DNA of 64,000 bases, taken from assembly GCA_050304755.1 (NCBI GenBank), contig JBNLED010000095.1:7635-71634 (forward strand). The letters are read 5' to 3'. Origin of the DNA: Polyangia bacterium. Its GTDB lineage: Bacteria; Myxococcota_A; Polyangia; JAAYKL01. The position numbers and the translations under genes were made by a program. Position 1 is the stretch's first letter. The number at the start of each line of letters is the position of its first letter. Below the pieces are notes generated by a model. It did not search any database, was not told the origin of the DNA, and saw only the letters and a list, made by a program, of their open reading frames with translations. Positions 11,252 to 26,335 of the stretch are shown here, piece by piece.

Positions 11252-11575
11252 GTAGTTTTCCTCACCACTCATTTTTTACCTTATTGCAACCTAAACTGGT
11301 TGTCTTTTTGATGGAAGATATTAGGGGTTTCTATACTATCGTCGCTTTGTTTACCGTCCCGTCATTTGAGCGCTTGAACGTCGCGATACCGGTTGGGCTC
11401 CGCGGATTGAACGGTTCGTTCAAGAATTAAGTATTGCCAAGCTCGAGTTTTGTCAAGGTTTTATATAAGAAAAAAAACAAAATAGTGGAGCAATATCGCT
11501 CTATTTGGAGCTTCCGGTGTACAACCCGCTCTTTTTATACAATAATTAAATTTTTGAAAAAGCGAGGGGTCGATA

Positions 11576-12058
11576 ATGATAAAAGAGGCATGCGTTCTCA
11601 CATCTGTATTTATACCCATACTATCCATCACCGCCTGCAAGAATACCGCATCCAATGATTCTCCTGAGAAACGGGACCCGAAGCGCTGCGACTTCGTGGA
11701 TATTGGAGAAGCGGCGGACTTTATAAAAACCAAGATCGTGGATGATCGTCTCGTGGTGGCGCATGGCCTGGCGAATCCCCAGGCGTTGATATGGAAGGAT
11801 GACAGCTCCGGCCGGACCTTCTACCTCGCCCGCGTGCTGGGAACGGAAAAGAAGCTCTACTACCTCAAACCGGTGGCGGACGACGAGACCCCCGGCGTCG
11901 CCTCGGAGTTCAAGGGCCACCTCCTCAAATGGAGCCACCTCGACGCCCGACGCAACGCCCTCCTGACCAACGCGCTGGCCACCCAGTACAACGTCAAGAT
12001 CGACGCTGACAAAACCTACATCATCCTCAGCGGGGATAAACCCGACGGTTGTCCCTGA
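11576..12058 (+). CDS. Hypothetical lipoprotein
   Basis: GAGGGG RBS. Signal peptide with lipobox (LSITAC). No recognised domain. Confidence 0.5.
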   Translation: MIKEACVLTSVFIPILSITACKNTASNDSPEKRDPKRCDFVDIGEAADFIKTKIVDDRLVVAHGLANPQALIWKDDSSGRTFYLARVLGTEKKLYYLKPVADDETPGVASEFKGHLLKWSHLDARRNALLTNALATQYNVKIDADKTYIILSGDKPDGCP

Positions 12059-12059
12059 C

Positions 12060-12205
12060 CCGGGCGAATCGGATAAATTGATGGGCGGAGTAGGAACGGT
12101 CCTTGTGATCGCCCTCTTCCCGGCCCGAGGTCGGGCGAAACAAGATTCGCCCCTACAATCGGGGTCGGGATGGTCGGGCGAAACCAAGATTCGCCCCGGC
12201 GATCG
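12060..12205. repeat. REP-like GC-rich hairpin repeat cluster (locus A), tandem ~50-bp units with core GGGCGAA-loop-TTCGCCC
   Basis: gggcgaaacaagattcgcccctac (12132-12155) and gggcgaaaccaagattcgcccc (12175-12196) form 7-bp stem hairpins. Also gggcgaatcgg (12061) and ccttgtgatcgccc (12101). The same modules occur in inverted orientation at 24815-25025. Confidence 0.6.
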
Positions 12206-12206
12206 G

Positions 12207-15200
12207 CTAGGTCGAGATGGTGATCCCCAAGGTCTCCCGGAGCTTGAAGTACTCCTCTGAGACACTGAAGACTACGAGCTCCTTGATCTTCTCCTTGGGC
12301 GGCATCTCGTCGACTGTAGCGCTCTCCGACTGGACCATCCTGGCGGCGATTTCGAGATCGTTGCACATCAGGAATCCGGCCCGACACCCGGTCAGCTCCA
12401 CGGCGTTGATCCACTTCTTGACGTCGATGTTCTCGCCGGCCTTCAGGAAACGCTTCACGACACTCCCGAGGGCCTCCCGCTCCATGGGCTGCATCCGTCC
12501 CTGGAGCTGCTTGACATACTGGTCCAGGACGCCGGTCCGATCGGCGGGCAGGTTGAAGTCCGGCTTGCCGATCTTGAGCGCCGCGAGGAGCAGCGTCTTG
12601 AGCTCCCCGTGGGTCGGCAGCACCCAGCGGATGTAGTGCTCCGGTCTGTAGTAGTTGAGGTGCTTGGTCACCATGAACAGGAGGTCCTGCGGAGAGTATC
12701 CTGACAACAGGCTCGCACCGCAGACGCTCGCCATCGGTTCCGTGATCGCGAAGTTCAACCCGCCAGCGCTGTCCTCCTGAACGTACAAGTCCGGAGGGAC
12801 TGGGAGGTTCAGGACCTGCGCAGCGTAGAAGAAGGTCTTGGAGAACATCATGGTATCGTTGACCGGTCGCTTCTGCCCCTTCTTCAGACCGAAGGCCTTC
12901 GTGGGCTGCACCTTGTAGGAGCGGACGACATTGGTCACCGCCTCGAGGATCTTCCCGACGAAGATCGACTCGTTCGGATGGAACACATACTTGAACCACT
13001 TCTCATTGTCCAGCCGAGACTGCGCCCGGATCATTCCCTTGGCGCGGTATTGCTCGAAGAACTGCTGCTCGTCGGCGTCCGCCTTTTTGAGGAACGCGAG
13101 GGTCGCGCAGAGACACCACGCTTTGTCATACTGACGGTTGTCGAAGTAGAGCTTGCGCAGCGCCTTGTACGATTCGACCTTGTACGGGTTGTTCTTGATC
13201 ATCCACTGATATTCTTTGACCGCGTCGTCCATGCGGCCCGGCAGCGAGACATAGAGCTCGGCCAGGATCTCGTGCCGTACGACGTTATCGGGATCGAGAT
13301 TGGAGGCCATCTTGAAGGCCTCCGCCGCCGGCTCGAACTGCTGCATGCGCGTCCGATAGATCTCCCCGAGGAAGTGCCACAGGTTGATCTCGAGATCGGG
13401 GCGCCCCGTTCCGGTGATGCGGTGGAGCATCTTCCGGTAGGCCCGCTCCAGGTTCTTCCAGTCCTTGCGCTGCGTGAGGATTCGGTCGATGGCCTCGAAC
13501 GCCTTCAGCTCGGTGATGCTGGCGTCCAGCGAGAGATTGAAGCAGGCCACCGCCTCTTCCGCGTTCTTGATCTCATCGCGATAGATGACCCCCATCGAGT
13601 AGTAGAGCCGTCCGAGCTTCTCCCCGTCCTCCTCCATCTCGGCGACGCGACGGATGATATCCACCACCTTCTGCCACTGTTTGGTGGACTGGTAGAGCGG
13701 GAGCACCTTGTGCAACACCGGCCGGTTGTCCGGATCGATATCGAGGGCTTCGACATAGGCGGAGATGGCCTTCTGCGTGTTGCGGAGCTTCCCCTGCCAG
13801 ATATCCCCTATCTCCACGAGGGTCTCGAACCGCTCCTCTTCGTCGACCGCGTTCAGGAGCTCCTTCTTGAAATGAATCACCTGCTCGAAGTTCTTTCCCG
13901 CGTCATGGAGCTCGATGACCTCCTCGAGGGTCGGCACGTGGCCCGGATCGATCTCCAGCGCCTTGTCGAACATGTTGAGCGCCTTCCGCCGCTCCTTGAC
14001 CTGGGCCTTGATGTGTCCCAACCGATAGAAGATCTCCACGATCTCGGGTTTCCGCTGCTTGTCGCGGTGATGCACCAGCACCATCTGGTAGAACTTGAAC
14101 GCCTTGTCCCAGGTCTCCTTCCTGAAATAGACATCCGCGAGCTTCAGGAGCGTCGGGAGATGCGATGTGTCGGATTCGTATGCCGCCTGATACGCCTTCA
14201 GCGCCTTGTCCAGGTTGCCGACCTTGTCCGCGACGAGCCCGAGCTTGCGTTGCAGAATCTGCGTCTCGCTCGAGGAACGCCGCCCGCCGAGACGCACCAG
14301 CATGTCCAGGAGCGGCTCCGCCTCGGCATACCGCTCTTCCGCGATATAAACATCCACCAGCGGATCCGCAGCGGCCTGGTTGTCGGGATCCGAGGCGAGG
14401 GCCTTCTCGTACCACTCCACCGCGAGCTTCTCCTCACCGAGCTTCCCCGAGTAGAGGGCGCCCAGCTCGTATTGAAGCTTCGAGCGCTTGCGACTGTTAT
14501 CGGTGTACTCCTGTTCCGATTCCAGCGCGCGGGCGCCGGCCACCCAGTCGCCCTCGTCGAGGTATATCTTCCGGAGAGCCTCGAGGGATTGGAGATGCCC
14601 CGGCTCCACGTCCAGCGCGGACCGGAAGTGCTCGACGGCGATCTCCCGGTTCATCAGGTTCTCTTCGTTGATTTTGCCGAGCCGATAGTAGAGGTCGATC
14701 TTTCGGTCGGGATCGTCCACCGTCTGGGCCAGCCGCTCGAGGGTGTCGTGGGCGGCTCCCCAGTCCTCGTTCTGGGCCTGCAGCTGGGCCAGGTTGTCCA
14801 AGGCGTCGATGTGGTCTGGATCGATATCCAGGATCTCCATATACATCTCTATCGCCTTGTCGGCATCCTTGAGCTCGGACGCCCACACGTCACCCATCTG
14901 CTCGTAGAATCCGATCCGATCCATCCGGTCCGGGACGACCTCGATATGGCGCTCGAGGGTCGCGATGAGATCCTGCCATCTCCCGGTCTGTTTATAGATG
15001 CGCTCCAGAGCGTCAAGGGATTCGATCTGCGCGGGGTCAATCTCCAGGATCTCCTCGTAGCGTCCCGCCGCGCGGTCCGGCTTCAGGAACTCCTTCTCGA
15101 GCATCTCCGCGATGCGGCTCAAGAGATCGATCCGCTCCCTTTCGCTGGAGGCGTACTCGAGCTGGATCTCGAGGACATCCATCAGGTCCTGCCAGCGCTC

Positions 15201-18200
15201 GAGCTTATCATACAGGCGCTCCAACCCCTTCAAGGCGGCGACATGGCTCTCCTCGATATCGAGCGCCTTGCGGTATTCGTCGACCGCGGCCTGCGCCTCG
15301 TCAAGGTTGTCCTCGTAAATCTCTCCGATGCGGATGTGGGTGGAGATAATCTCGTCGGGCTCTTCGAGCACCTCGATCTTGCGCCGGAGCACGGTGATGA
15401 GCTCCCGCCAGTTCTCCGACGCGCCGTAGATGCGCTCCAACGCATCGATGGCCTTCTCCAATCCGGGATCCAGCGCGACCGCCTGCTGGAACGCCGTCCG
15501 CGCCTCGGGGATATCCCCCAGGTACTCCTCGTAAACCTCTCCGAGCTCCACCAGCAGGTCTTTTCTCTTCTCGTCTTCCTTCTCGAAGTCGACGGCGCGC
15601 TTCAGCACCTCGACGTACTCGTCCCACTGCTTGTTGGCGCGATAGAGGTGGCCGGTCAGCTGAAGGGCGGTGGCGTTCTCGCTGTCGAGCTGCAACACCC
15701 GCTGATAGCACGCGAGGGCATACTCCGGATTGTCCAGCTTGTCCGCGTACCATTTTCCGATCTTGAGGCAGAGGCTGATCTGGACATCCCGCTTCTCCAC
15801 GGCCGCGAGCACCTGGTTCGCCGCCTGGAGCAGCTCCTCCCACCGCCCGGTAACGGACGCCAGGCGCTCCAGATAGGCGGCGGTATCGTCGTTGACATAG
15901 TCCTCCTGGAAGGCCCGCAGCATGACGACGAACGCGTTGTCCGGCTGCTCCAGCTTCTCTTCGAAGATGTCGGCGACCTTTCTATAGATATCGATCCGTT
16001 GCTCGATATCCTCTATCATTCCCAACCGTCCATAGTAGTACTGATTCAGCTCGTCCCAGTTCTCCTCCTCGGTCTCTATCTCCACGAGCTTCTGGAACGC
16101 GAGGTCGTGGAGCTGATCGACCTCCAGGATACCGATGTACGCCTGCTTGGCCCGCAGCGGCTCGCCGATCTGCTCCTCGAAAACGCTCGCCTGATAGAGG
16201 AGGGTTTCGATGCGTTTCTCCCCTTCCAGGATCTGGGCTTTCTCGCGGAGCAGATCCACCTGATCCTCCCACATCTCCTGGTCCGTGTAGAGCTTCTCCA
16301 GGGCCTCATAGATCTTGAGATCCGAGGGATCGACGTCATAGGCATTCCGCCAGGAGTCGATGGCTTCCAGCGGCTGGTCGAGGATATCGGAGAAGATGGC
16401 GCCCTGTTTGGCGTAGTAGCCCTTGAGCTCTTCTTCTTCGAAGACGCTGGTGCCCACGGTGATGATGGTATCCAAGGTGTTCAGCAGCTGATCCCAGTCC
16501 TTGTTGGCCTCGTGAATCTGGGCGATCGCCTTCAGCGCGGGCATGTTCTCCGGCTCGATGCTGAGCACGTTCTCCCAGTTCTCCAGCGCGTTCTTGTCGC
16601 GCTGCAGGCACTCTCCCCAAACCAGGCCGAGCTGGCTGTAGATCCGCACGCGGGTCTCGTCGTCCTCGGCGACCGTCACCGCCCGATCCAGGATCTCCAC
16701 CAGATCGCTCCAGTTCTCCTGCCGGGCGTGGAGCTCCGCCAGGGATTCGAGCGCGAAGGTGTCCTCCCCCCGAAGCTCCAACACCTTGTTCCAAAGCTCG
16801 GTGGACTGGGGGATGTCGTTCAGGCAGTCCGCCGAGATGGTGGCCAACTTCGAGTAGAGATCCGCGAGCTCCTGCTCGTCATCGGTGCCGTCCTTCATAT
16901 GAGAGTAAATCTCGTAGAGCTCTGACCATGCCTCCTGATCCGCGTAGACGATTTCGAGATGCTCGAGCGCCTCCGAATTGTGAGGATCATATTCATCGAT
17001 GACCCTGTGGAAACACTCCCTGGCCTTCTCGGCATCCCCAATCTCCGTGCTGTAAACGGCCCCCAGCCGGTTGGTGTAGGCGATCTTCTCCTCCACATCC
17101 GGAACAATCTCCGCCAGCTTGAACAGGATACCGGCCAGCCGCTCCCACTCCATGTACTGCGTATAAATCCTGTCGAGCGCCGTGAGCACGTCCAGATCAT
17201 CGCCGCCGTGATCCAGACAGCCGCGATACGCCTGCTCGGCCCGCGCGATATCGCTGAGATGCTCCTCCGCGACAACCGCCAGACGCTTCGCGCAGAGTAT
17301 CTTTATCCCGGGGTCCTCATTCCTGAGGAACAGATCCTGATAGAGATCCGCGAGCTCCACCCACCCGTCGACCGCGCTCGCCAGGCGCTCCACCTCTTCG
17401 CCGGAGCGCTCGTTGAGGGGATCCGCAGAAAAGGCCTTGCAATACCAGTTGAACGCCTCCACCGCGTCCAGCGCGCGCTCCTCCTGGATCTCCGCCATCC
17501 GGTGCATGAGGGACACCATATCGTGGGTGTCCTCGATGTCCTCGAGTTGCGCCTCGTAGAGCCTGACGAGCTTCTCCCATTCTGAGTGCATCCGATAGAT
17601 GGGCTCGAGCACACCAGCAATATCTGTCCGGCGCCCCCCCTCCGCGAAGAGAAACTCCAGCGCGGAAGAGGACGACTCGTGCGCCGGATCCGCGGCGAGG
17701 ATGTCCCGATAGGTCTCGATGGCCTTGTCGATCTGTTGGAGCTCCTGCTGGTAGACCTGCCCCATCCGGAACTGCAGCTCCAGCCCCTCCTCGGGATCCT
17801 CCGCGATGGCGGCCTCCTTCTCGAGGATCTCCGTCAAATCGCCCCAGCGCTCCTGTATATGGAAGAGCCGATCCAGGCACTGCAGGGCCTCGCGGTTCTG
17901 GTCGTCGAACTCCAGCACCTTGCGATAGCGCAGGATCGCCTCGTCCGAGTCGTTCAGCTTCTCTTCATAGATCACACCGGCCTTCAGCCCGATGAGGATC
18001 GCCTGTTCGGCGTCCACGATTTGCTCCAGCTCCTTGTCCATCAGCATCGCCAGATCCTTCCAGCGATCCGTCTGGGAGGCCAGCTCCTCGAGCTTCTCGA
18101 GGGTCCGCTCGTTCGTGCGATCCTCGGCTAGGGCGCGGGCGTAGACGTCGAAGGCTTCTTCGGGGACATCCAGATACAGATCGCTCTCCATCATCTCGGC

Positions 18201-21200
18201 GATCCGGTGGAGGAGCTCCACCTTATCGATCTCGGACTCGGCGTGCCTCAGCTTGACATCGAGGACCTCGATCAGCTTACGCCACTCCCCCATGTCATGG
18301 TAGATGGGCTCGAGCACCTCGGCGGCGAGCATCGCGCCCTCGTCTGTATGGATGAGCTCCTCCAGAATCGCCAGGGAGGGCTCGTGATCCGGCGAGAGCG
18401 TCAGAATCTCCCTGAAATAGTCCACTGCGCGGGAGATGTCGTCGAGGTGTCTTACGTAGAGCTCCCCGACCCTGTACTGGAAGGAGATGGCCTCGTCGGG
18501 ATCTCCCGAGAGCTCTATCCGCCGCTCGAGGATGGAGAGGAGATCGTGCCACTCCTCCTTTTGTGTATAGAGGCAGTCGAGGCGATGCACCGACTGTACA
18601 TCATCCGGATCGAACTCCAACACCCGCTGGTAGGTGGTAATCGCCTTGTCGATGTCCCCCACCTCCTGCTCGTACACCGAGCCGAGGACATAGAGGACCT
18701 CCCGTTTTTCCTCGGAGGTTTCGACGAGATCGACCTTCTTGTTGTAGATTTCTTGCAGATCGTCCCAACGCTCCAGCTTGAGATACAGCGCTTCGATCTG
18801 CGTGATCGCCTGGAGATCGTCCTCGTCTATCTCGAGGATCCGGCGGTAGACCTCTATCGCCTTGTCGATATTCCCCATGTACTCTTCATAGATGCGACTC
18901 GCCTTGAAGAGCATATCCTTCTGTTCTTCAATATCCGCAACTATATCCACCTTCTTCTGATAAATGATCGCGAGATCTTCATAGTTCTCGGTTATCTGGT
19001 AGGCCCCCTCGAGCGCGGTCGCCGCCTCCAGATGCATGGGATCGACCTCGAGCACGGCGCGATAGTGCTTGATTGCGTTGTCCATGTCCTGCAGGTTGTC
19101 CTCGAATACGCGGGCGATCTTGAGATGGTAGTACGCCTTCAAATCGTAGGTGTCGATGGTGTCGACGATCCGAGCGTACAGCGCCGCCAGATCATCATAG
19201 AGGACCAGGATCCGGGCCAGTCGTTCCAGCTCTTCCTGGGTGCTGTCCTCCGCCGGATCAATCGAGAGGGCGCGGCCGAAGGTCGTGAAGGCCCTCTCCG
19301 GATCGTCCCCCTCGGTCTCCCACAGGGCGGCCACCTGATGGAGCAGCTCCACCTTTCGGCCGGCGGAATCCTCGGTGTCCACCATAATCTCGTAGACGTT
19401 GACGAGCTTCTCCCATATCCCCAGCGCTTCATAGATCGGCTGGAGGATATCGGCGACATCGCGACGGAACTCTAGATTCTCGATGATCCCCTCGAGGGCC
19501 TCGATGGCCTTCTCGTTGGAGGCGTCCACGTTGAGCACCTCTCGATAGATCTCTATCGCCGCGCCGATCTGCCCCAGCTGTTTCTCGTTCAGCTCGGCGA
19601 GGCGGAGGTTCAGGGCGATGGTCTCTTCGGCGTCCTCCCCCATGCTGAGCTGGGCCTGCAGGTTGTCGGCGAGATCGGTCCAGCGCTCGAGCTGTCGGAA
19701 GAGCTTGTCCAGCTCCTTCAAGGCCCCCATGTTGGCCGGATCGAACCCCAGGACCTCCTTCAGGCAGGTAATGGCGTCCTCCGGTCGGTCGAGCATCTCC
19801 TCGAAGATCATCGACATCTGGAGATAAATCTGCTCCTTTGCCTCAATATCATCGGTGATCTCCACTTTCGTCTTGTAAATTTCAATCAGTTCATCCCAGC
19901 GCTCGGTGCGATTGTAAATCCCCTCCAGGGCCGCGACCGACTCGCTGTTCTGGGGATCCGCCGCCATCGCCTGGTTGTAGGCGTAGACCGCCTTGTCCAC
20001 ATCGTCCAGCTGTGTCTCGTATATCCGGGCGGCGCGAATCCATAGATCCTTCGCCGTCTGAAGATCGCGGGTCCCCTGCCCTCCTTCCGCCAGCAGATCC
20101 ACCAGCTCGCTCCAGGAATCGAGGATATTCGTAATCTCCTCGAGGCGCTCGAGGGCCTCCGGCTCCGTCGGTCGCTGCTTGAAGGCTCGGGAGTACGCTA
20201 CGAACGCTCTTTCCGGAGACATCAGATTCTCCGAATACAGCGCCCCCTCCCGAATCAGGAGCTCATATCGCTCTAACTCGTCCGTCGCGTGGCGGACCAG
20301 GATCTCCAGAGAACCGACGAGCTTCTCCCACTCCTCGTGTTCCTCGTAGTACAGGGAGAGGACCTTGGCGGCTTCCGCCTGTTGCCCCTCGTCGTCGAGC
20401 ATCGCCTCGAGGGCGCTGACCGCATCGGCGTACTCCGGATCGACCTCCAGGATCTCACGATAGCACTCCATCGCCTTCACGCGGTCATTCAGATGTTGCT
20501 CGGAGACCTGCCCCTGGCGGAACTTGAGCTCGAGCTCGAGCTCCGGTTCGACCATCCCCAGATCCAGCTGTCGCCGGATGACGTCCGACAGATCCGTCCA
20601 CCGCTCCTCGACCAGGTACAGCCGGTCCAGGGAGGACAGCGAGCGGGGGTCATCGCCCGCCATCTCGATGAGCTGATTCAAGACGGTGATGGCCTTCTCG
20701 TTGTCCTTGACCTCTTCTTCCCAGAGCAGCGCCTGATTGTACAGGATCTCCTGCCGCTCGGTGTCATCCTCGGCCATCTCCAACCGACGGGCGTAGATGT
20801 CGAGCAACTCCTCATACCGCCCCATATGGGCGTAGAGCTTCTCGAGCGCAGCCACGGCGCGTTGATTCTTCGGATCCAGGGTCAGGATCTCATCGTAGTA
20901 CTTCAGCGCGTCGTCCCGCTGATTCAGCTCGTCATCGAGAATCCGCGCGATCTTCAGCTTGAGATTGATGCTCGCCGCGTCATCGGCGTCCTCCAGGAGC
21001 GAGCGATAGGTTTCAACGACGGTCTCCCACTCCCCGGTCTTGCCCGCGAGTCGTTCCATGTCCTCACTCGACTGCTCGTCCTCGGGGCTGAGTTCGAACA
21101 CCGAGAGGAACCCCTTGAACGCCCGCCCGGCGTCCCCGATCTCCTCCTCTGCGAGGGTCGCGATGCGCCGGGTCAGCTCTATTTTATCTACGATATCTTC

Positions 21201-22619
21201 GAGGTGATGAAGGCGGACCTCCAGGACATCAGCGAGCTTGGCCGGCTCTTTGCCTTCCTCCAATATGGGGATGTAGAGCTCCGCCGCGTCCAGGTTCTCG
21301 GGATCCAGGGACAGGATGGTCTCGTAGGATGACGCCGCGCGATCGGTGCGGGACTTCTTCTCGCTCCAGAGCTCCGCCACCTTGAAGTACATACTAATTT
21401 TGGTGGCGACCTCCGTGGTGTCCCGATCCGCCTCCCGCTCCAGAATCCGGATGAACTCATCCCACTTTCCGCTAGTGTCGTAGAACGCCTCAAGGTCGTC
21501 CCACGCCTGGGCCGCGAGATAACGCTTCTTGAGCTGCTCCTGCGCCCGTCTGTCGTTCGGGTTCATCTCGAGCAGGGTCTTCCACGCCTCTATCGCCTTG
21601 GCGTTGTCCCCGATGCGGTCACCATAGACCTGCCCCAGCTTCTGGAGCATCTGTGTCTGTTGCGCCGGGTCGACAACGCTCTCCAGCTGCCTGGACAGCA
21701 CCACCGCCAGCTTCTCCCACTCCTTGGCGCGCTCATAGAGGCTGCTCAGCTCGTTCAGGGCACTTTCGTTCTCGGGATCCACATTGAGGACCGCCTCCCA
21801 GCGCTCAATGCAGATATTGGGCCGCTTGAGACGATCGGACGCCAACTGGGCGATCTGCAGATACCCATCAATCCTGGCGGATTCATCATCGAGCTGCTCG
21901 ATCTCTTTCTCCATCACGCCGATGAGCTTCTCCCAATCCCTCCGCTTCTCATACATCCCCTTGAGGAACTCGAGCGCCTCTGAATGATAAGGATCGACCG
22001 CCAACACCTCCTCAAAGGCCTTGATGGTCTCGGCCTGATTCGAGAAACGGTTGAGGAAGAGCTTGGCCACCACCAACCAGACCCCGACCTTCTCCTCAGG
22101 ATCCGTAACCGCCGCCCCCTTGAGCTTCATCATCTTGACGAGATCCGGCCACCGCTCCATCGATTCGTATTTGTCGATTGCGGCGTTGATCGCGGGCAGG
22201 TAGTCCGATTTGAATTTGAGGATGGCCTGATAGGTATTGACCACCATCACATCCTGTTTCATGCGCTCATCATAAAGCGACGCCAGGGTCATCAGCACGT
22301 TGATCTTGCGGGGGCTGTCCTTGAGAGTATTGCCGTTCTTCTTCAGGAAATCCGCGAGCTGCGGCCATTTTCCCGTGTTCTCGAAAAGGCGCATCAGGGC
22401 GTCGACCACCTCCTGATGCCCGGGCGAGACCGACCATGCTTCCTGCCACGCGGCGATCCCCGCGTCGTCCCCCTCCATCTCAGCCGCGGTGGCGTTGTCG
22501 AACGCCTCTTTCATCTCAGGGGTCAACTCTTCCTCTTCCTGGGAAGATGCTGCGGCCAGTTCCTCTTCCTCCGCTATTACTTCTCGTCCATCCTCGCGCG
22601 ATTCGCCGTCAATCGTCAT
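12207..22619 (-). CDS. Giant tetratricopeptide-repeat protein (~3,470 aa; the ORF extends to 22733 = 3,508 aa), TPR array throughout plus a ~330-aa C-terminal non-TPR domain
   Basis: Single uninterrupted ORF of 10.5 kb. Recurrent 34-aa TPR signatures (W-LG-Y-A-F-A-P patterns, e.g. AIEAWKTLLEMNPNDRRAQEQLKKRY, ALKYYDEILTLDPKNQRAVAALEKLY) across >90 repeats. Start preferred at ATG 22619 (GAGGAGA RBS 6 nt upstream) over 22652 or 22733. Confidence 0.85.
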   Translation of the reverse strand: MTIDGESREDGREVIAEEEELAAASSQEEEELTPEMKEAFDNATAAEMEGDDAGIAAWQEAWSVSPGHQEVVDALMRLFENTGKWPQLADFLKKNGNTLKDSPRKINVLMTLASLYDERMKQDVMVVNTYQAILKFKSDYLPAINAAIDKYESMERWPDLVKMMKLKGAAVTDPEEKVGVWLVVAKLFLNRFSNQAETIKAFEEVLAVDPYHSEALEFLKGMYEKRRDWEKLIGVMEKEIEQLDDESARIDGYLQIAQLASDRLKRPNICIERWEAVLNVDPENESALNELSSLYERAKEWEKLAVVLSRQLESVVDPAQQTQMLQKLGQVYGDRIGDNAKAIEAWKTLLEMNPNDRRAQEQLKKRYLAAQAWDDLEAFYDTSGKWDEFIRILEREADRDTTEVATKISMYFKVAELWSEKKSRTDRAASSYETILSLDPENLDAAELYIPILEEGKEPAKLADVLEVRLHHLEDIVDKIELTRRIATLAEEEIGDAGRAFKGFLSVFELSPEDEQSSEDMERLAGKTGEWETVVETYRSLLEDADDAASINLKLKIARILDDELNQRDDALKYYDEILTLDPKNQRAVAALEKLYAHMGRYEELLDIYARRLEMAEDDTERQEILYNQALLWEEEVKDNEKAITVLNQLIEMAGDDPRSLSSLDRLYLVEERWTDLSDVIRRQLDLGMVEPELELELKFRQGQVSEQHLNDRVKAMECYREILEVDPEYADAVSALEAMLDDEGQQAEAAKVLSLYYEEHEEWEKLVGSLEILVRHATDELERYELLIREGALYSENLMSPERAFVAYSRAFKQRPTEPEALERLEEITNILDSWSELVDLLAEGGQGTRDLQTAKDLWIRAARIYETQLDDVDKAVYAYNQAMAADPQNSESVAALEGIYNRTERWDELIEIYKTKVEITDDIEAKEQIYLQMSMIFEEMLDRPEDAITCLKEVLGFDPANMGALKELDKLFRQLERWTDLADNLQAQLSMGEDAEETIALNLRLAELNEKQLGQIGAAIEIYREVLNVDASNEKAIEALEGIIENLEFRRDVADILQPIYEALGIWEKLVNVYEIMVDTEDSAGRKVELLHQVAALWETEGDDPERAFTTFGRALSIDPAEDSTQEELERLARILVLYDDLAALYARIVDTIDTYDLKAYYHLKIARVFEDNLQDMDNAIKHYRAVLEVDPMHLEAATALEGAYQITENYEDLAIIYQKKVDIVADIEEQKDMLFKASRIYEEYMGNIDKAIEVYRRILEIDEDDLQAITQIEALYLKLERWDDLQEIYNKKVDLVETSEEKREVLYVLGSVYEQEVGDIDKAITTYQRVLEFDPDDVQSVHRLDCLYTQKEEWHDLLSILERRIELSGDPDEAISFQYRVGELYVRHLDDISRAVDYFREILTLSPDHEPSLAILEELIHTDEGAMLAAEVLEPIYHDMGEWRKLIEVLDVKLRHAESEIDKVELLHRIAEMMESDLYLDVPEEAFDVYARALAEDRTNERTLEKLEELASQTDRWKDLAMLMDKELEQIVDAEQAILIGLKAGVIYEEKLNDSDEAILRYRKVLEFDDQNREALQCLDRLFHIQERWGDLTEILEKEAAIAEDPEEGLELQFRMGQVYQQELQQIDKAIETYRDILAADPAHESSSSALEFLFAEGGRRTDIAGVLEPIYRMHSEWEKLVRLYEAQLEDIEDTHDMVSLMHRMAEIQEERALDAVEAFNWYCKAFSADPLNERSGEEVERLASAVDGWVELADLYQDLFLRNEDPGIKILCAKRLAVVAEEHLSDIARAEQAYRGCLDHGGDDLDVLTALDRIYTQYMEWERLAGILFKLAEIVPDVEEKIAYTNRLGAVYSTEIGDAEKARECFHRVIDEYDPHNSEALEHLEIVYADQEAWSELYEIYSHMKDGTDDEQELADLYSKLATISADCLNDIPQSTELWNKVLELRGEDTFALESLAELHARQENWSDLVEILDRAVTVAEDDETRVRIYSQLGLVWGECLQRDKNALENWENVLSIEPENMPALKAIAQIHEANKDWDQLLNTLDTIITVGTSVFEEEELKGYYAKQGAIFSDILDQPLEAIDSWRNAYDVDPSDLKIYEALEKLYTDQEMWEDQVDLLREKAQILEGEKRIETLLYQASVFEEQIGEPLRAKQAYIGILEVDQLHDLAFQKLVEIETEEENWDELNQYYYGRLGMIEDIEQRIDIYRKVADIFEEKLEQPDNAFVVMLRAFQEDYVNDDTAAYLERLASVTGRWEELLQAANQVLAAVEKRDVQISLCLKIGKWYADKLDNPEYALACYQRVLQLDSENATALQLTGHLYRANKQWDEYVEVLKRAVDFEKEDEKRKDLLVELGEVYEEYLGDIPEARTAFQQAVALDPGLEKAIDALERIYGASENWRELITVLRRKIEVLEEPDEIISTHIRIGEIYEDNLDEAQAAVDEYRKALDIEESHVAALKGLERLYDKLERWQDLMDVLEIQLEYASSERERIDLLSRIAEMLEKEFLKPDRAAGRYEEILEIDPAQIESLDALERIYKQTGRWQDLIATLERHIEVVPDRMDRIGFYEQMGDVWASELKDADKAIEMYMEILDIDPDHIDALDNLAQLQAQNEDWGAAHDTLERLAQTVDDPDRKIDLYYRLGKINEENLMNREIAVEHFRSALDVEPGHLQSLEALRKIYLDEGDWVAGARALESEQEYTDNSRKRSKLQYELGALYSGKLGEEKLAVEWYEKALASDPDNQAAADPLVDVYIAEERYAEAEPLLDMLVRLGGRRSSSETQILQRKLGLVADKVGNLDKALKAYQAAYESDTSHLPTLLKLADVYFRKETWDKAFKFYQMVLVHHRDKQRKPEIVEIFYRLGHIKAQVKERRKALNMFDKALEIDPGHVPTLEEVIELHDAGKNFEQVIHFKKELLNAVDEEERFETLVEIGDIWQGKLRNTQKAISAYVEALDIDPDNRPVLHKVLPLYQSTKQWQKVVDIIRRVAEMEEDGEKLGRLYYSMGVIYRDEIKNAEEAVACFNLSLDASITELKAFEAIDRILTQRKDWKNLERAYRKMLHRITGTGRPDLEINLWHFLGEIYRTRMQQFEPAAEAFKMASNLDPDNVVRHEILAELYVSLPGRMDDAVKEYQWMIKNNPYKVESYKALRKLYFDNRQYDKAWCLCATLAFLKKADADEQQFFEQYRAKGMIRAQSRLDNEKWFKYVFHPNESIFVGKILEAVTNVVRSYKVQPTKAFGLKKGQKRPVNDTMMFSKTFFYAAQVLNLPVPPDLYVQEDSAGGLNFAITEPMASVCGASLLSGYSPQDLLFMVTKHLNYYRPEHYIRWVLPTHGELKTLLLAALKIGKPDFNLPADRTGVLDQYVKQLQGRMQPMEREALGSVVKRFLKAGENIDVKKWINAVELTGCRAGFLMCNDLEIAARMVQSESATVDEMPPKEKIKELVVFSVSEEYFKLRETLGITIST

Positions 22620-22996
22620 CTCATTCTCCTCGAAGAGTTTCCCCGCCAACATGTCTGTCTGATTTGTTGTGGAGAAGCTGATAATACAAATTGGTATGCC
22701 TGCTTGGCGTGCCAAAGGACAGTTTTGGCTCACCAGTCATCCTGCATTCCCTCGATGGTGCGCCTCCCTGGAAACCGGGGAGATCTCTGGTAATGGATTC
22801 AATCTGCCGACCGTGCTCCCGCTCGCTATACAAATACATCGAAAAAAACGGGCTCAATTCTTTCCAGTATGTAGCTCCTGGATCTCTCATTATCCGGCCT
22901 GTGTTTTCCAAATACTTGAAACCGCTTGAATAAATCGCCTTCCCTACTTGCCTCGGGGTCTACCGAAGCGACGAAGCGATTTCATACCTGATACTA

Positions 22997-23878
22997 TCAT
23001 TTATATGGCGTGCCGTTTTCGATCTCCGCCAAACGGGCCGACGCCGCGGCCAAATAGTCCGGTCTGGTCTTCTGGCTCGCGCTCTGCATGAACTTGTTGA
23101 GCCAGATCTTGGCATTCTCCGGATTGGTGTAGGAGTAGGTCCACCCCAGGCTGAACATGGCGTCTTCCATGTTCGGCTTGATCTCCATGGCCTGCCGGAA
23201 CTCCGCGACCGCCGCCTCGTACTCCTTCTTCTCCGCGAGCACCGTGCCCAGACGGTGGTGCAGCACCGCGAGCTCATCTCCCCTGCCCTCGAGGGCCTTG
23301 ATGCCCTCCCGGAACACCTGCTCCGCCTGCGCCAGGAAATGGAAATCGGCATAGAGGCCGCCGAGCTCCCGATAGGCCTCGAAGAACCGCGGATTCTTCA
23401 TGATTGTGTCGGTGTATTTCTGGAGCGCGTTCTGGGGGTCGTCCATTTTCTCGAAAACGACCCCGAGACGGTAGTGGGCTTTGAAGAGTGTATCGTCGAG
23501 CTCAATGGCCTTCACCAAGGCGCTCGCGGCCTGCTCCGGTTTCCCGGCCCATTGATACACCTCCCCGAGCTGGTAGTGCCAGAGGGCGACGCTGCCGTCC
23601 AGGGAGATGGCCTTGGAAAGATGGCGGGCGGCCTGGTCATACTCCTTGGTCTCGATGTACACCATCGCTAGATTGTGGTGAGCCTTCTCGTTTTCCGGAT
23701 CCAGGCTCACGGCCTTGCTGCAGTCGCGAATGGCCTGAGGATATAGCTGACGCCGATGGTACTCGACGCACTTGTTCATCATCTCCACCGACTGAACATG
23801 CTCGCGGCTGCACTTCGCTCCGGAAAGAATGAGAAGTGTTCCAGCTGCACAAATTGCCAAAATGACTTTCCTGCCCAT
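22997..23878 (-). CDS. TPR-repeat secreted protein or lipoprotein
   Basis: AGGAGA RBS. Signal peptide MGRKVILAICAAGTLLILSGAKC followed by ~7 TPR units (AHHNLAMVYIETKEYDQAARHLSKAISLD...). Confidence 0.7.
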   Translation of the reverse strand: MGRKVILAICAAGTLLILSGAKCSREHVQSVEMMNKCVEYHRRQLYPQAIRDCSKAVSLDPENEKAHHNLAMVYIETKEYDQAARHLSKAISLDGSVALWHYQLGEVYQWAGKPEQAASALVKAIELDDTLFKAHYRLGVVFEKMDDPQNALQKYTDTIMKNPRFFEAYRELGGLYADFHFLAQAEQVFREGIKALEGRGDELAVLHHRLGTVLAEKKEYEAAVAEFRQAMEIKPNMEDAMFSLGWTYSYTNPENAKIWLNKFMQSASQKTRPDYLAAASARLAEIENGTPYK

Positions 23879-24015
23879 CTTTTTTTCTCCTAGTTTGAGT
23901 TCAAAAATCAAAAGATTTTATAAAGACGTATTTAAGATGTAAAGCCCTTAAACGAGATCAATATAGCAAAAACACAGCGTTGACCAAATTTAGTTTTCGA
24001 GGATCGACAAGCCTG

Positions 24016-24753
24016 TCAACTACCCAATTTTATGATTTTTCCCGACTTATCGTGTTTATACCCCTTGGGCAATATCGCATCGACCTTCTTCTTGAAGCCC
24101 GTAGTCGGCCACTCCAGACGAGAAAACGCATCCACCACCTCGTTCCGCACGCGGATACTCTCATCCTCACACATCGTCTTCAGCAGCGGCTCCCTCGCCA
24201 CGTCCATCCCCTGCTTGGTCAGCGCAACCACGGTCTGATATCGCACCGTTTCGTCCACATCCTCCAGGAACCGAAGGAGCGACTTGGCCACATCGATATG
24301 CTCTATTTCTGCGAGCGCCATGACGGTTTGTAGCTTACGATCCGGATTTTTTTCATATTCGGTATCGAAATCTTCCAGAATCTCCAGGAGCTCCGTCTTG
24401 TACTCCTCGTCTGAAACAATGGCTTTCAAGGTGCGTAGAACCCAGCTGACGCTCTCCAGACTTCTCAGAGCGCGCTTGATCTGAGGCAACGCATCCCGGC
24501 CAATATCGATAATGGCGTCGTAAACCCACTCCTTTTCCCGCTCGTCTTCCATGCTCGGCTCGGCCACCACCGTGAACCGCTTGAGCAGACCGGCGATCGC
24601 CGTATCATTCCCCGACTTGGCGGCCTGGATGACATTCTGAAGCGAAATCTGGCGATAGTCTTTGGGTTTGAATTTGTTGTTTGCGCTTCGAATATCGCGG
24701 TCCAAACGATTCCTACGCCGTTTGTCCGCTGATAGAAAATCAAAAAATCCCAT
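24016..24753 (-). CDS. HEAT-repeat (PBS-lyase-like) protein
   Basis: Repeated DxxxxVRxxAxxAL motifs (DVDETVRYQTVVALTK, DESIRVRNEVVDAFSRL), 245 aa, all alpha-helical. Confidence 0.6.
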   Translation of the reverse strand: MGFFDFLSADKRRRNRLDRDIRSANNKFKPKDYRQISLQNVIQAAKSGNDTAIAGLLKRFTVVAEPSMEDEREKEWVYDAIIDIGRDALPQIKRALRSLESVSWVLRTLKAIVSDEEYKTELLEILEDFDTEYEKNPDRKLQTVMALAEIEHIDVAKSLLRFLEDVDETVRYQTVVALTKQGMDVAREPLLKTMCEDESIRVRNEVVDAFSRLEWPTTGFKKKVDAILPKGYKHDKSGKIIKLGS

Positions 24754-24814
24754 TCCGTCTCTATATCGAAATACACAAAGATATTCTACTTATATTTGCT
24801 TATTTTGTCGTAGA

Positions 24815-25025
24815 GGGTCGAATCGCGCATTCGCCTGAATCATTTGTTGTAGGGGGGAAGCTTGGATTCACCCAGAAGTTGCATTCGCCCGAATCGGACC
24901 GTAACCGGGCGATCACGAGGATCGCCTCTAAAGACCATCCGCCCGGTTCACAACCGGGCGATCACGAGGATCGCCCCTACAAACGATGTTGGTTCTGTCC
25001 GTAGGGGCGAATCTTGTTTTCACCC
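24815..25025. repeat. REP-like GC-rich hairpin repeat cluster (locus B), same family as 12060-12205 in inverted orientation
   Basis: Two copies of ccgggcgatcacgaggatcgcc (24905-24926 and 24954-24975, 7-bp stem ggcgatc/gatcgcc) at a 49-nt spacing. gtaggggcgaatcttgttt (25001-25019) is the reverse complement of gggcgaaacaagattcgcccctac at 12132. ttcgcccgaatcgg at 24884. Related gtagagggtcgaatcgcgcattcgcc and gtaggggggaagcttggattcaccc copies at 24820-24874. Confidence 0.6.
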
Positions 25026-25105
25026 TGGTTTTCAAAAGTTAATAATGTTGCATATCTAAGACTTGCGATGAAAACATCATGTTCTGCTTGAGGTGCGCTC
25101 TTCCC

Positions 25106-26335
25106 TTAGACATCAGGGTCTTCGTTTGCGGAGCCCTCTTCTTCGTCCTCTGTCAACGCACCAATCATTTGATTGATACGGAAGCTCAGCCCTCCGACTT
25201 CGGAGGATTTCACGTCAAAACGGTACTGGTATTCACCATTGATGACCTTCAACACCCCCTCCTCAATCTCGATGATGGGCTTCATGAAGTGGTTGGCGAG
25301 GAGCATTCCGCTGACAAAGACAATCAGCAATGTGATGGCCATCGCAACGAGAATACTCTTTATTCCCCGGAGGTTTTGGAAAGATTTGTCGACGGAGGCC
25401 ATCATCAGGGTCGCCACCCTATCCTTGGTCTCGGCGTTGGTCATCGGAACGATCTGGGCCAGGTAGGCCCGATCCTCCACAACAAGATCAAAGACATCGG
25501 ATATCCTTCCCGCTTGGAGCGATTTATCCATTGATTTTATAATGTTCGCTTTGGTGAGGGTTTTCTCCAGACTCTCCCTCGCGGTCTCGGTTCCGAGGGA
25601 TGTGCTGTAGACGGATTCCCCCTTCAGCACCGCGACCTCCATACTGGTCAACTTTGAATGTTTTGTCGCAGTGCCGTCCGAGATATCAAACCCCACCACG
25701 AGCGTCCCAGCGATATCATCTCCGAGCCAGATCGGCGCCGCCGCCAGCTCGAGCAAATCCGTGTTCATCAACTGACAATACTCTGAATTCTTTTTCTTCT
25801 TGCTGAACGGGGAGCTATCGTTGGACCATATCGCATAGGCCGCCTGGCCGTCCAGCGCCCGGGTCACGACGGACATGCCGTCAGCGACATTCTTTTTCAC
25901 CGGACACGCGTTGGGGGTCGTGTTGCGCGCCAAAGCCACGCCCCGCCGGTCGGTAATCAGCACCAAGTCCGGCCGCTTATGATATTTGCTCTGCCATTGA
26001 TCTGCATACTTTTCTATGGCTTGAACACATTTCTTAAACCATATTCTATGAATTTTCGCGTCGACCTGCGCTGAGGTCTGCCCCTCGTCCCGGTCCACCT
26101 CTACCTTTTCGAAAACGGTCACCATATCCCGGGACATGGCCTGGGCTCTGACATTGTTCAACAATTCGAACCCTCGAAGACCTTCAGATCTCGCAAAGAG
26201 CGCGGTGATGACCTGAAGATTCTCCCGGAGATCTTCTTTGGCCTTCTTCTGCAAGCGGTTGTCGAGATAGAAATAGCTCGCCACACCAAATAACAACACC
26301 GCAATAAAGTTGGGTAGGATTATTTTTACACGCAT
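25106..26335 (-). CDS. Membrane sensor protein: TM, ~280-aa periplasmic (Cache-like) domain, TM, HAMP domain, with no output domain
   Basis: AAGGAG RBS. TM1 ILPNFIAVLLFGVASYFYL, TM2 ILVAMAITLLIVFVSGMLLANHF, HAMP (MKPIIEIEEGVLKVINGEYQYRFDVKSSEVGGLSFRINQMIGAL), then an acidic tail and stop. The ORF ends at the edge of repeat locus B. Confidence 0.6.
   Translation of the reverse strand: MRVKIILPNFIAVLLFGVASYFYLDNRLQKKAKEDLRENLQVITALFARSEGLRGFELLNNVRAQAMSRDMVTVFEKVEVDRDEGQTSAQVDAKIHRIWFKKCVQAIEKYADQWQSKYHKRPDLVLITDRRGVALARNTTPNACPVKKNVADGMSVVTRALDGQAAYAIWSNDSSPFSKKKKNSEYCQLMNTDLLELAAAPIWLGDDIAGTLVVGFDISDGTATKHSKLTSMEVAVLKGESVYSTSLGTETARESLEKTLTKANIIKSMDKSLQAGRISDVFDLVVEDRAYLAQIVPMTNAETKDRVATLMMASVDKSFQNLRGIKSILVAMAITLLIVFVSGMLLANHFMKPIIEIEEGVLKVINGEYQYRFDVKSSEVGGLSFRINQMIGALTEDEEEGSANEDPDV

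Follow-up and report, generated by a model that had tools for sequence, protein, structure and literature searches.

Two short non-coding stretches in the window (the whole 64,000-nucleotide stretch of DNA analysed here, of which 14.8 kb of sequence is identical in a second assembly) carry related hairpin motifs and lie at the two ends of a 12.7-kb block of genes, and this raises the question of whether they are the borders of a segment that moved or repeats of a more ordinary kind. The genes concerned are these:

10001-11272, minus strand: Rho gene, adjoining the 160-aa gene.
11576-12058, plus strand: 160-aa gene, family unassigned, convergent with the giant gene and with the same neighbours in L127 and L128.
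12207-24753, minus strand: three-gene block with a HEAT gene (24016-24753), a TPR protein gene (22997-23911) and a giant TPR protein gene (12207-22733), recognised by Pfam and by synteny in L123-L126.
25106-26335, minus strand: sensor-like gene of 409 aa with a weak C-terminal HAMP match (residues 345-395, E 0.034).

We found that locus A fills the 148-nt convergent spacer from the stop of the 160-aa gene (12058) to the stop of the giant gene (12207), and that locus B lies in a unidirectional spacer 3' of the sensor gene, between the sensor stop (25106) and the HEAT start (24753). These positions bear out a preliminary description of the locus, which had also placed the end of the sensor gene right at the edge of locus B; the last unit is in fact 80 nt from the sensor stop.

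We scanned the 64-kb window with a covariance model, R1, that was trained on 25 unit variants, all from other genomes. R1 matched seven units with E values from 3.6e-11 to 1.2e-4 and one marginal unit at 0.09. All eight matches are confined to 12090-12200 (locus A) and 24810-25025 (locus B), and there was no further match at E < 1 outside the two loci. The sequence GTAGGGGCGA, with at most one mismatch, occurs four times in the 64 kb, in loci A and B only. In the same window the pattern GGGCGAA-N7-TTCGCCC has 7 matches as compared to 0.7 expected and the pattern GGGCGATC has 5 as compared to 0.33, and the counts for both were higher than in 100 of 100 shuffles. When we compared approximately 27 intergenic spacers, similarity was significant for the A-B pair only. 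The earlier claim that the motifs form a repeat family is therefore confirmed, far above chance, by R1, the pattern counts and the spacer comparison. The load in the window is eight units at two loci, occupying 2 of the approximately 27 spacers, and this is far fewer than the hundreds that genomes rich in repetitive extragenic palindromes (REPs) typically hold. A scan of the window with Rfam 15 gave no match at gathering score for the repeats, and the sole hit was a tRNA (57095-57166). Only eight short units are present, four of them poor hairpins, and Tandem Repeats Finder detected no array at locus A or locus B, but a chance resemblance between GC-rich hairpins such as ordinary terminators, with no family behind it, is vanishingly unlikely and is contradicted by foreign-trained R1 matches down to E 3.6e-11 at loci A and B with the rest of the 64 kb empty at E < 1, by pattern counts above those of every shuffle, and by identical 25-mers elsewhere.

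In each unit an 8-bp stem (GGGCGA-NN / N'N'-TCGCCC) closes a 5-nt CTTGT-like loop, with GTAG left unpaired as a tail. Two sub-types are present in the window, with the stem ending in GATC or in AAT. In the R1 alignment, stem positions 7-8 covary (AU/UA/UG and CG/UA/GC); 97% of cells are paired in the unit alignment as compared to 27-52% in slid controls, and the observed covariation score was reached by 0 of 500 shuffles. The GTAG tail is kept in A1, A3, B1, B2, B4 and B5 and is mutated in A2 (GCCG) and B3 (TTAG). Because GTAG was fixed by the search pattern that gave the foreign units used for R1, its invariance in those units is not independent evidence. In locus A the parts are as follows:

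12060-12072, plus strand: half-unit remnant CCGGGCGAATCGG, which follows the TGA of the 160-aa gene without a gap and corresponds to the 5' arm of an AAT-type stem; R1 does not detect it, and in predicted folds it pairs with an arm of A2.
12090-12114, plus strand: unit A3, GTAGGAACGGTCCTTGTGATCGCCC, GATC-type and decayed, joined as left arm to A1 in a head-to-head (HH) dimer; R1 21.8 bits, E 1.2e-4; DNA fold only -1.8 kcal/mol.
12133-12156, minus strand: unit A1, GTAGGGGCGAATCTTGTTTCGCCC, AAT-type with one base deleted, so built that a stem of 7 bp closes a loop of 6 nt; R1 33.0 bits, E 3.4e-8; DNA hairpin -7.3 kcal/mol, z -4.3.
12176-12200, minus strand: unit A2, GCCGGGGCGAATCTTGGTTTCGCCC, a tandem copy of A1 (25/26 in alignment) with tail GCCG, ending 6 nt from the giant-gene stop codon; R1 23.2 bits, E 4.4e-5; -7.3 kcal/mol.

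In locus B the parts are as follows:

24783-24811, minus strand: promoter-like site ACGACA-17-TAGAAT in the AT-rich stretch from the REP cluster to the HEAT start codon, found by consensus scan only.
24810-24836, plus strand: unit B1, GTAGAGGGTCGAATCGCGCATTCGCCT, a strongly decayed, marginal member; R1 12.8 bits, E 0.09; its fold (-4.1 kcal/mol) is no better than shuffles.
24849-24873, plus strand: unit B2, GTAGGGGGGAAGCTTGGATTCACCC, decayed, in an HH pair with B3; R1 25.2 bits, E 1e-5; -4.0 kcal/mol.
24884-24897, plus strand: half-unit remnant TTCGCCCGAATCGG, by sequence a 3' stem arm; not detected by R1.
24907-24931, minus strand: unit B3, TTAGAGGCGATCCTCGTGATCGCCC, GATC-type with a mutated tail; R1 24.7 bits, E 1.5e-5; -7.7 kcal/mol, z -4.6.
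24956-24980, minus strand: unit B4, GTAGGGGCGATCCTCGTGATCGCCC, the sole canonical unit (stem 8 bp, loop CTCGT) and a tandem copy of B3; R1 42.4 bits, E 3.6e-11; DNA hairpin -9.5 kcal/mol, z -5.0; its 25-mer is identical in L100.
25001-25025, plus strand: unit B5, GTAGGGGCGAATCTTGTTTTCACCC, AAT-type with a decayed stem, in a tail-to-tail (TT) pair with B4; R1 35.4 bits, E 5.8e-9; alone it folds at -1.7 kcal/mol, and in the RNA fold it pairs with B4 via CCCCUAC/GUAGGGG.

Units are oriented +,-,- along locus A and +,+,-,-,+ along locus B, with irregular spacing in both. They form the dimers A3/A1 (HH, 18 nt), B2/B3 (HH, 33 nt) and B4/B5 (TT, 20 nt), and the tandem copies described as lying about 50 nt apart are indeed separated by 44 nt (A1/A2) and 49 nt (B3/B4). 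The two loci had been described as inverted copies of each other: they do share units, but each holds both orientations, alignments between A and B cover single units of 19-31 nt, direct and inverted alike, and there is no long terminal inverted repeat. Only half of the units are hairpins of the kind that had been described. Stable single-stranded DNA hairpins (7-8 bp, -7.3 to -9.5 kcal/mol) are formed by A1, A2, B3 and B4 only, and the decayed A3, B1, B2 and B5 fold at -1.7 to -4.1 kcal/mol. The third module described, GGGCGAATCGG, is only a half-unit remnant that R1 does not detect. Folded as RNA, cluster B is more stable than shuffles (z = -3.5), and the locus B dimer is predicted to be able to form one long hairpin.

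Could the repeats mark the edges of an insertion or rearrangement by which the 12.7-kb block came in and the sensor lost its output domain? Both ends of the block carry units of one family, and the sensor has only the weak HAMP match and no output domain. Against this, approximately 60 sensor homologues, with identity down to ~40%, are equally long (400-410 aa, 93-99% coverage), which shows the sensor gene to be complete, with no truncation. Among relatives at 64-76% HEAT identity, the order and strand of the sensor, HEAT, TPR and giant TPR genes are unchanged, and adjacent locus tags suggest the same four-gene adjacency in many more relatives; judged by this gene order, the four form a conserved cluster in a Myxococcota-like MAG clade. 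On the other side, the giant gene, the 160-aa gene and Rho are syntenic in the close relatives L127 and L128, and the GC content of the block (~0.60) is the same as in its flanks. Block and both flanks are syntenic among relatives. We found no long inverted repeat and no target duplication, nor any transposase or integrase by Pfam on eight ORFs (10001-28811) and by searches specific for REP-associated tyrosine transposases (RAYTs) on all ORFs of the window. The spacers themselves differ: the sensor-HEAT spacer is 352 nt in the window as compared to 140 nt in L123, 35 nt in L124 and 42 nt in L125, where no units of the family are found, and the giant-gene spacer is 9 nt and free of the family in L128, the one relative compared there. 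Homologue lengths, synteny and these unit-free spacers refute the idea of an insertion footprint, to which we give almost no weight. A mobile module bounded by inverted repeats was also considered and rejected, given short matches in both orientations, conserved synteny and no mobility gene among the ORFs searched.

Because the spacers of relatives are short (9-140 nt) and lack the family, the repeat clusters are lineage-specific arrivals in existing spacers. By a rough estimate, the odds of two clusters falling within three spacers of each other by chance are only ~0.2, so coincidence is plausible, and coincidence together with a preference of REPs for transcript ends is the simplest, and a plausible, explanation of why the clusters flank the 12.7-kb block. 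It is highly probable that both loci are small clusters of GTAG-tagged REP units, decayed in part and arranged as BIME-like groups, which arrived in pre-existing spacers and were presumably spread by a RAYT. A RAYT (Y1/HUH) transposase is presumed to move REP units as hairpins of single-stranded DNA, with intergenic spacers as targets and a preference for sites downstream of genes. In this lineage only, units arrived in the sensor-HEAT spacer and in the convergent spacer of the giant TPR and 160-aa genes, both of them already there and short, and the depositing RAYT would be encoded elsewhere in the source genome or would formerly have been present. The sensor, giant-TPR and 160-aa transcripts would each carry intact hairpins at the 3' end, and such stem-loops would hinder exonucleases or give the sensor partial insulation from the HEAT and TPR genes; any RNA-level role of the hairpins is one that we only infer.

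In a different reading, the hairpins are locus-specific regulatory elements recruited by the operon (partial terminators, attenuators, 3' stabilisers or protein-binding sites) instead of passive selfish DNA, and how much sensor is made relative to the HEAT/TPR products would depend on them. Cluster B splits neighbouring genes whose gap in relatives is only 35-42 nt, and because of that short gap it now separates a probable operon; its fold is better than that of shuffles, the promoter-like site then follows, and REPs between cistrons modulate mRNA decay (PMC3733652). The promoter-like site, as a match to a consensus, is no evidence of function. Relatives manage without the hairpin units, 4 of the 8 units are decayed, and the same units are scattered over unrelated contexts in many phyla. 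In locus A, our scan found no T-tract after the hairpins and no terminator-like site, and in locus B one such site was found, between units, so a terminator role is unsupported by sequence. We therefore consider a locus-specific regulatory function improbable.

The placement of the repeats as REP units agrees with the survey of GTAG REPs, which include the REPs of E. coli, those of Pseudomonas and the SMAGs of Stenotrophomonas (Di Nocera, De Gregorio and Rocco, 2013; PMC3733652). GTAG REPs, sorted into 24 numbered families from 8 phyla surveyed, have an unpaired GTAG at one end, a 6-9 bp GC-rich stem and a short loop. Their sub-families differ by complementary stem changes, HH dimers 20-100 bp apart predominate beside grouped elements, and they lie between unidirectional or convergent genes, downstream of coding regions (PMC3733652). 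The units of the window and those of other genomes match this description in tail, stem-loop, sub-types, dimers and gene context. A single G. uraniireducens GTAG-11 peptide in the supplement of that survey (PMC3733652) implies a stem unlike that of the window family. The HH dimers of GATC-type and AAT-type units in the window are as in Geobacter-type genomes, and the unit sequences are unrelated to the REPs of E. coli or Pseudomonas.

E. coli BIMEs consist of Y and Z REPs in regular alternation, with defined linkers, and their function is defined by the binding of IHF, gyrase and Pol I; the REPINs of Pseudomonas fluorescens were reportedly described by Bertels and Rainey in 2011. As in BIMEs and REPINs, the units alternate in orientation, two unit types (GATC with AAT) meet in one dimer, and the dimer can form a long hairpin; unlike in E. 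coli BIMEs, spacing and composition are irregular in the window. Short repeats flank a DNA segment at both ends as in MITEs and composite transposons, but there is no extended TIR, target-site duplication or transposase and the enclosed genes are syntenic. Like intrinsic terminators, the units are GC-rich stem-loops downstream of stop codons, but their hairpins lack a U-tract. The REPtron or RAYT (TnpA-REP) system is said to have been treated by Ton-Hoang in 2012. As in that system, units in other genomes flank HUH/Y1 genes (Nunvar, 2010, PMC2817692; Messing, 2012, PMC3479197); unlike in it, the window lacks a RAYT gene (none among all window ORFs by phmmer with E. coli RayT or by a clade-specific HMM at E <= 10) and the foreign RAYT clade carries a dimer inside the ORF.

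When we searched 596 Gb of sequence with a strict unit pattern, matches were found in at least 120 genome blocks from many phyla; a back-of-envelope estimate of the chance expectation is a handful of matches. Among the matches listed, more than 20 phylum-level groups share the core GTAG-GGGCGA-NN-CTTGT-N'N'-TCGCCC almost without variation, a spread far beyond the 8 phyla of the 2013 survey (PMC3733652), and the commonest 25-mers are GTAGGGGCGAACCTTGTGTTCGCCC (76 copies), ...GATCCTTGTGATC... (20) and ...AATCTTGTATT... (18). An identical 25-mer is present in Geobacter, Chloroflexota, Armatimonadota, Bacteroidota, Deinococcota, Planctomycetota and others. Again among the matches listed, greedy ORF calls cover 87.5% of bases and leave 66% of units outside. 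Unidirectional contexts number 54, convergent ones 24 and divergent ones 11, and the dimers are HH (52), TT (6) or HT (9).

One foreign locus, L052, holds an HUH/Y1 ORF with RAYT-like motifs, a unit 52 nt upstream of it and a dimer inside it. At the loci of 80 relatives of this RAYT we found 185 R1 hits in 198 kb, as compared to 2 R1 hits in 76 kb in the syntenic relatives of the window; units are present at 68 of the 80 RAYT-relative loci and also at L052 and L081. The family is thus strongly enriched around one RAYT (Y1/HUH) clade. In 48 of 74 intact RAYT ORFs, an HH REP dimer lies in frame inside the ORF, just after the HUH motif; we found no description of such a dimer in the RAYT literature searched. 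The REP/BIME reading of the preliminary description is thus supported by the GTAG tail, the GC-rich stem-loop, the extragenic site, the mixed-orientation groups and a family associated with RAYTs elsewhere. A more specific proposal is tentative and on the whole doubtful: the units in the window may be stray, decaying copies of an unusually conserved REP lineage tied to the RAYT clade with the in-ORF dimer. In a weaker variant, cluster B would have been co-opted in this lineage to uncouple the sensor from the giant-TPR operon.

Taken together, the result for this locus is mainly a corrective one. The 12.7-kb block is no recent insertion and the sensor is no truncated gene; the repeats are ordinary REP-type elements of a known kind, which in annotation should be labelled as REP units and not as island borders. 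The conservation of the four-gene cluster may help the study of the giant, 3,500-aa TPR protein. As a by-product, the analysis yields a covariance model of a REP lineage nearly unchanged across many phyla, and this model and the in-frame dimer of the RAYT genes bear on how REPs are matched to their transposases and how they move between genomes. If it is true that the RAYT gene holds a master copy of the REP, then REP and RAYT would travel as one self-contained unit, and the same 25-mer would therefore be found in many phyla.

All repeat copies at locus A (12060–12205) and locus B (24815–25025) follow a common plan when read in one orientation: a GTAG tail, a stem that starts from GGGCGA, a short loop and a complementary arm that runs to TCGCCC. 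Locus A is the entire 148-nt spacer between the convergent stops of a 160-aa gene and the giant TPR gene, and locus B lies within the 352-nt spacer from the sensor stop to the HEAT start.

Genes and repeat units at the two loci
10001–11272, minus strand, Rho
11576–12058, plus strand, 160-aa gene without a Pfam match
12060–12072, surviving half-unit
12090–12114, plus strand, unit A3, locus A
12133–12156, minus strand, unit A1, locus A
12176–12200, minus strand, unit A2, locus A
12207–22733, minus strand, giant TPR protein, 3,508 aa
22997–23911, minus strand, TPR protein, 304 aa
24016–24753, minus strand, HEAT-repeat protein, 245 aa
24810–24836, plus strand, unit B1, locus B
24849–24873, plus strand, unit B2, locus B
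24884–24897, surviving half-unit
24907–24931, minus strand, unit B3, locus B
24956–24980, minus strand, unit B4, locus B
25001–25025, plus strand, unit B5, locus B
25106–26335, minus strand, sensor, 409 aa; single domain signal a weak C-terminal HAMP (residues 345–395, E 0.034)

We found two sub-types of unit, in which the inner stem end reads GATC or AAT. A3 and A1, and likewise B2 and B3, form head-to-head pairs with GTAG outside, B4 and B5 form a tail-to-tail pair, and tandem copies are 44 nt apart (A1/A2) and 49 nt apart (B3/B4). As single-stranded DNA, A1, A2, B3 and B4 fold into hairpins of –7.3 to –9.5 kcal/mol (z –2.6 to –5.0); in A3, B1, B2 and B5, the stem is mostly lost. For RNA folding, z is –3.5 for spacer B and, for spacer A, –2.6 (minus strand) and –1.6 (plus strand). 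Units are present in both orientations within each locus, and the best alignments of A to B span only 19–31 nt and are found in direct as well as inverted sense. Thus, the preliminary description of the loci as inverted copies is only partly right: they share a repeat family, but neither locus as a whole is the inverse of the other.

To search the window, we used a covariance model of the repeat unit (R1) that was trained on 25 unit variants, all from other genomes, with filters off. R1 recovered seven units at E values of 3.6e-11 to 1.2e-4 and B1 at E 0.09; matches at E 0.09–0.65 are palindromic units seen on the opposite strand, and there was no independent match at E ≤ 1 in the rest of the 64-kb window. 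With at most one mismatch, GTAGGGGCGA occurs four times in 64 kb, always at loci A and B, and the window counts of both hairpin patterns were above those of every shuffle. When the ~27 intergenic spacers that are 60 nt or longer were compared, loci A and B were the sole pair with significant similarity. The R1 scores and pattern counts indicate that the hairpin repeat family is real, but its geometry had been over-read. A candidate third site (38911–38993) is coding sequence with chance GGGGCGA strings.

Di Nocera et al. (2013; PMC3733652) describe a super-family of GTAG-tagged REPs with a GTAG tail and stems of 6–9 bp, divided into sub-families by complementary stem changes. As described there, head-to-head dimers predominate (20–100 bp apart), the elements are found downstream of coding regions, where neighbouring ORFs are unidirectional or convergent, and they are associated with genes for RAYTs (REP-associated tyrosine (Y1/HUH) transposases) in an arrangement called a REPtron. 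Our unit family coincides with this description. The GGGCGA stem is absent from the supplement to that work, so the units are not assigned to any of its 24 numbered families, and a literature text search for the DNA 25-mers and their encoded peptides found no paper. The earlier suggestion that the repeats are REP/BIME elements holds, since their unit plan, dimers and extragenic contexts match those of GTAG REPs.

When we scanned GTDB species genomes (596 Gb) with the strict pattern GTAGGGGCGAWYCTYGN{1,4}TCRCCC, we found at least 120 blocks, where chance would give a handful of matches by our own rough estimate. By record title, the blocks listed come from Desulfuromonadales/Geobacter, other Thermodesulfobacteriota, Armatimonadota, Chloroflexota, Deinococcales, Acidobacteriota, Aminicenantes, Planctomycetota, Nitrospirota, Bacteroidota, Ignavibacteria, Gammaproteobacteria, one cyanobacterium, Gemmatimonadales, Latescibacterota and several candidate phyla; isolates among them are Tannerella forsythia ATCC 43037, Geobacter sp. 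AOG1 and Microbulbifer zhoushanensis. These foreign units have an 8-bp stem, in which two inner pairs carry compensatory substitutions, and a constant CTTGT loop. In the stem test, which is informative for the inner pairs only (the collecting pattern fixes the outer stem), 97% of cells are paired as compared to 27–52% with a slid partner, and none of 500 shuffles reached the covariation score. Among the blocks listed, 66% of foreign units lie outside greedy ORF calls that span 87.5% of bases. Their gene neighbours run in one direction in 54 cases, converge in 24 and diverge in 11. Most dimers are head-to-head (52, with a median spacer of 22.5 nt), as compared to 6 tail-to-tail and 9 tandem pairs. 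Geobacter-type dimers join a GATC-type and an AAT-type unit (e.g. in blocks L068 and L046), the same combination as in the window.

Three 25-mers dominate the 163 pattern matches listed: GTAGGGGCGAACCTTGTGTTCGCCC (76 copies), GTAGGGGCGATCCTTGTGATCGCCC (20) and GTAGGGGCGAATCTTGTATTCGCCC (18). Among these matches, GTAGGGGCGAACCTTGTGTTCGCCC is identical across genomes labelled as many phyla, the three isolates named above included, and it is also present on two contigs of a Promethearchaeota MAG, which are of very low coverage and possibly mis-binned. REP families are usually regarded as species- or genus-specific, and the phylum breadth of GTAGGGGCGAACCTTGTGTTCGCCC is unusual for such a family. 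In four blocks from chromosome 2 of a Phototrophicaceae MAG (OZ243934.1; L017, L021, L035 and L075), REP dimers that each join a GATCCTTGGATC-type and a GACACTTGTGTC-type unit are embedded in a longer repeat that is conserved on both flanks, over ~40 nt upstream (AGTGGTGAATTA..GCTGAGT) and ~25 nt downstream, and that looks like a larger MITE-like element with the dimer at its core. Four other blocks (L107, L099, L109 and L097) hold tandem arrays of whole units or half-units, for instance with GGTATTCGCC repeated in L109 and modules of unit plus spacer repeated in L107 and L097; these arrays resemble the grouped elements described for REP-rich genomes.

There is no RAYT-like ORF in the window by phmmer with E. 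coli RayT or by a clade-specific HMM (E ≤ 10). When 3,767 ORFs of the 120 blocks listed were clustered all against all to look for proteins that accompany the units, only housekeeping families emerged, e.g. ABC transporters and response regulators; RAYTs went unseen there because they are too rare per block. Block L052 carries an HUH/Y1 ORF (581–1231) with the motif NHFHAIV, which matches E. coli RayT at E 2.4e-4 and Pfam Y1_Tnp at 20.6 bits, slightly below the 23-bit cut-off. A canonical unit lies 52 nt upstream of this ORF, a head-to-head dimer lies within it and another GTAG hairpin lies downstream. In L081, the same RAYT clade is represented by a partial copy that contains a unit. L106 has another, different RAYT-like ORF, but its REP dimer is 3.5 kb away and was not counted as an association. 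A scan of metagenome contigs with the L052 protein minus its REP-encoded stretch gave 559 confirmed relatives, of which we kept 80 (36–64% identity). At E ≤ 0.01, R1 found 185 units in 198 kb of these 80 loci as compared to 2 in 76 kb of the window's syntenic relatives, which ties the unit family to the L052 RAYT clade. The window units are members of this RAYT-associated GTAG REP lineage, extragenic and partly decayed.

In L052 and the 80 metagenome loci (L131–L210), we also observed that one RAYT clade carries a head-to-head REP dimer in its own ORF, at a fixed place right after the HUH motif. At 52 of the 80 loci, the RAYT match contains units, and in 48 of 74 intact RAYT ORFs units are located between the HUH motif and the catalytic Tyr. 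In the 38 ORFs with a plus-strand unit between HUH and Tyr, the unit is in frame 0 in 33 (peptides like VGATLVVAP...GQPQGIAPT) and in frame 1 in five (RRGESCIRP...GEHKVRPY). The stem sequences of these internal dimers vary among loci, GTAG, GGGC and the loop are constant, and the insert is entirely absent from some members of the clade. The literature examined, including by string search, gave no description of such an in-ORF dimer. Incidental to loci A and B, and of more interest, are the constancy of the unit across phyla and the presence of REP dimers within RAYT genes.

The repeats bracket a 12.7-kb block and the sensor ends beside locus B with a HAMP-like signal, which had raised the alternative that the block is an insertion or rearrangement that truncated the sensor gene. 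About 60 of 73 sensor homologues are 400–410 aa long (coverage 93–99%, identity down to ~40%), so this HAMP-like-ended architecture is the normal form of the family and the sensor is not truncated. HEAT and sensor homologues are found on common contigs, with consecutive locus tags in two cases. Three sensor-side relatives (HEAT identity 76%, 68% and 64%) and a second copy of the third share the gene order response regulator-GAF-HD, ~200-aa gene, sensor (403–407 aa), HEAT (246–247 aa), TPR (293 aa) and giant TPR (3,477–3,481 aa where the contig permits), with a histone-deacetylase-family gene just before the sensor in two of them. On the other side, a 78%-identical relative (L127) has the giant gene, a 102-aa ORF, a 161-aa gene and Rho, and a 75% relative (L128) has a convergent 178-aa gene 9 nt from the giant stop and then Rho. 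More distant relatives have other neighbours at the giant gene, and a search of metagenomes with the C-terminal 300 aa of the giant protein gave no confirmed relative. The sensor–HEAT spacer is 140, 35 and 42 nt long in L123, L124 and L125 as compared to 352 nt in the window, and these three spacers hold no unit of the family. With the same gene order on both sides and short spacers in relatives, the block is not an insertion; rather, the REP clusters are lineage-specific additions to pre-existing short spacers between genes that were already neighbours. By our own rough estimate, two clusters placed at random among ~25 spacers fall at most three spacers apart about 1 time in 5, so the bracketing needs no special explanation. 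Irregular spacing, mixed orientation and the absence of an Rfam match at loci A and B (gathering thresholds) led us to reject a CRISPR-like or small-RNA element, Tandem Repeats Finder reports no arrays there, and the hairpins are without T-tracts and so are not classical intrinsic terminators.

The four-gene cluster itself (window 12207–26335; L123–L126) is conserved in a clade of Myxococcota-like MAGs (sensor ~405 aa, HEAT 246 aa, TPR 293–304 aa, giant TPR ~3,480–3,510 aa) and has as its neighbours a response regulator-GAF-HD gene and a HAMP histidine kinase. The L127 spacer that follows the giant gene (710–1524) contains an extra 102-aa ORF and several different GC-rich, GTAG-tailed hairpins (e.g. 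CCCGCGCGTGAAATCGCGCGGGTAG and GGCGGCAGGTGAACTGCCGCCCTAC), indicating that another REP-like family has collected there. In L125, a Myxococcota relative, two GTAG units whose stems are of other sequence (GGGCGCATCGGGATGCGCCC and GGGCGGTTCGCGAACCGCCC; 1968–1991 plus, 2091–2114 minus; R1 E ~3e-4) lie elsewhere than in these spacers and form a head-to-head pair that overlaps a called 68-aa ORF. The window's clade thus gathers REP-like elements of more than one type, which is common for REPs. Elsewhere in the window, 53016–53354 is a coding-type, GAC/GAT-rich tandem repeat with 12- and 18-nt periods (18 overlapping copies of a 75-nt reference) that would encode a long Asp-rich D-x stretch, and GC content dips to 0.47 at 26001–27000, as compared to ~0.60–0.65 elsewhere, in the region of the divergent spacer that precedes the sensor gene and a 186-aa ORF without a Pfam match. 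An assembly at NCBI, GCA_050303475.1, contains the window's Rho protein without change and, except at a contig end, the same DNA; the HEAT and sensor proteins also lie on a 73,455-nt NCBI contig.

Taken together, loci A and B are REP/BIME-type clusters, not traces of insertion or truncation, and add a further member to a known class of element; in the relatives compared, the corresponding spacers lack the clusters. In the general model for REPs, a RAYT acts on single-stranded hairpin DNA (PMC2817692, PMC3479197, PMC8266576), and we infer that the window units would have been laid down by a RAYT working in this way. Given that both spacers are at the 3' ends of transcripts, transcription of the intact hairpins (A1, A2, B3 and B4) and of the long B4/B5 hairpin is probable; a promoter-like hexamer pair is predicted on the minus strand (24811–24783), between cluster B and the HEAT start. 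Once transcribed, the hairpins may protect upstream mRNA, or may partly insulate the sensor from the HEAT and TPR genes.
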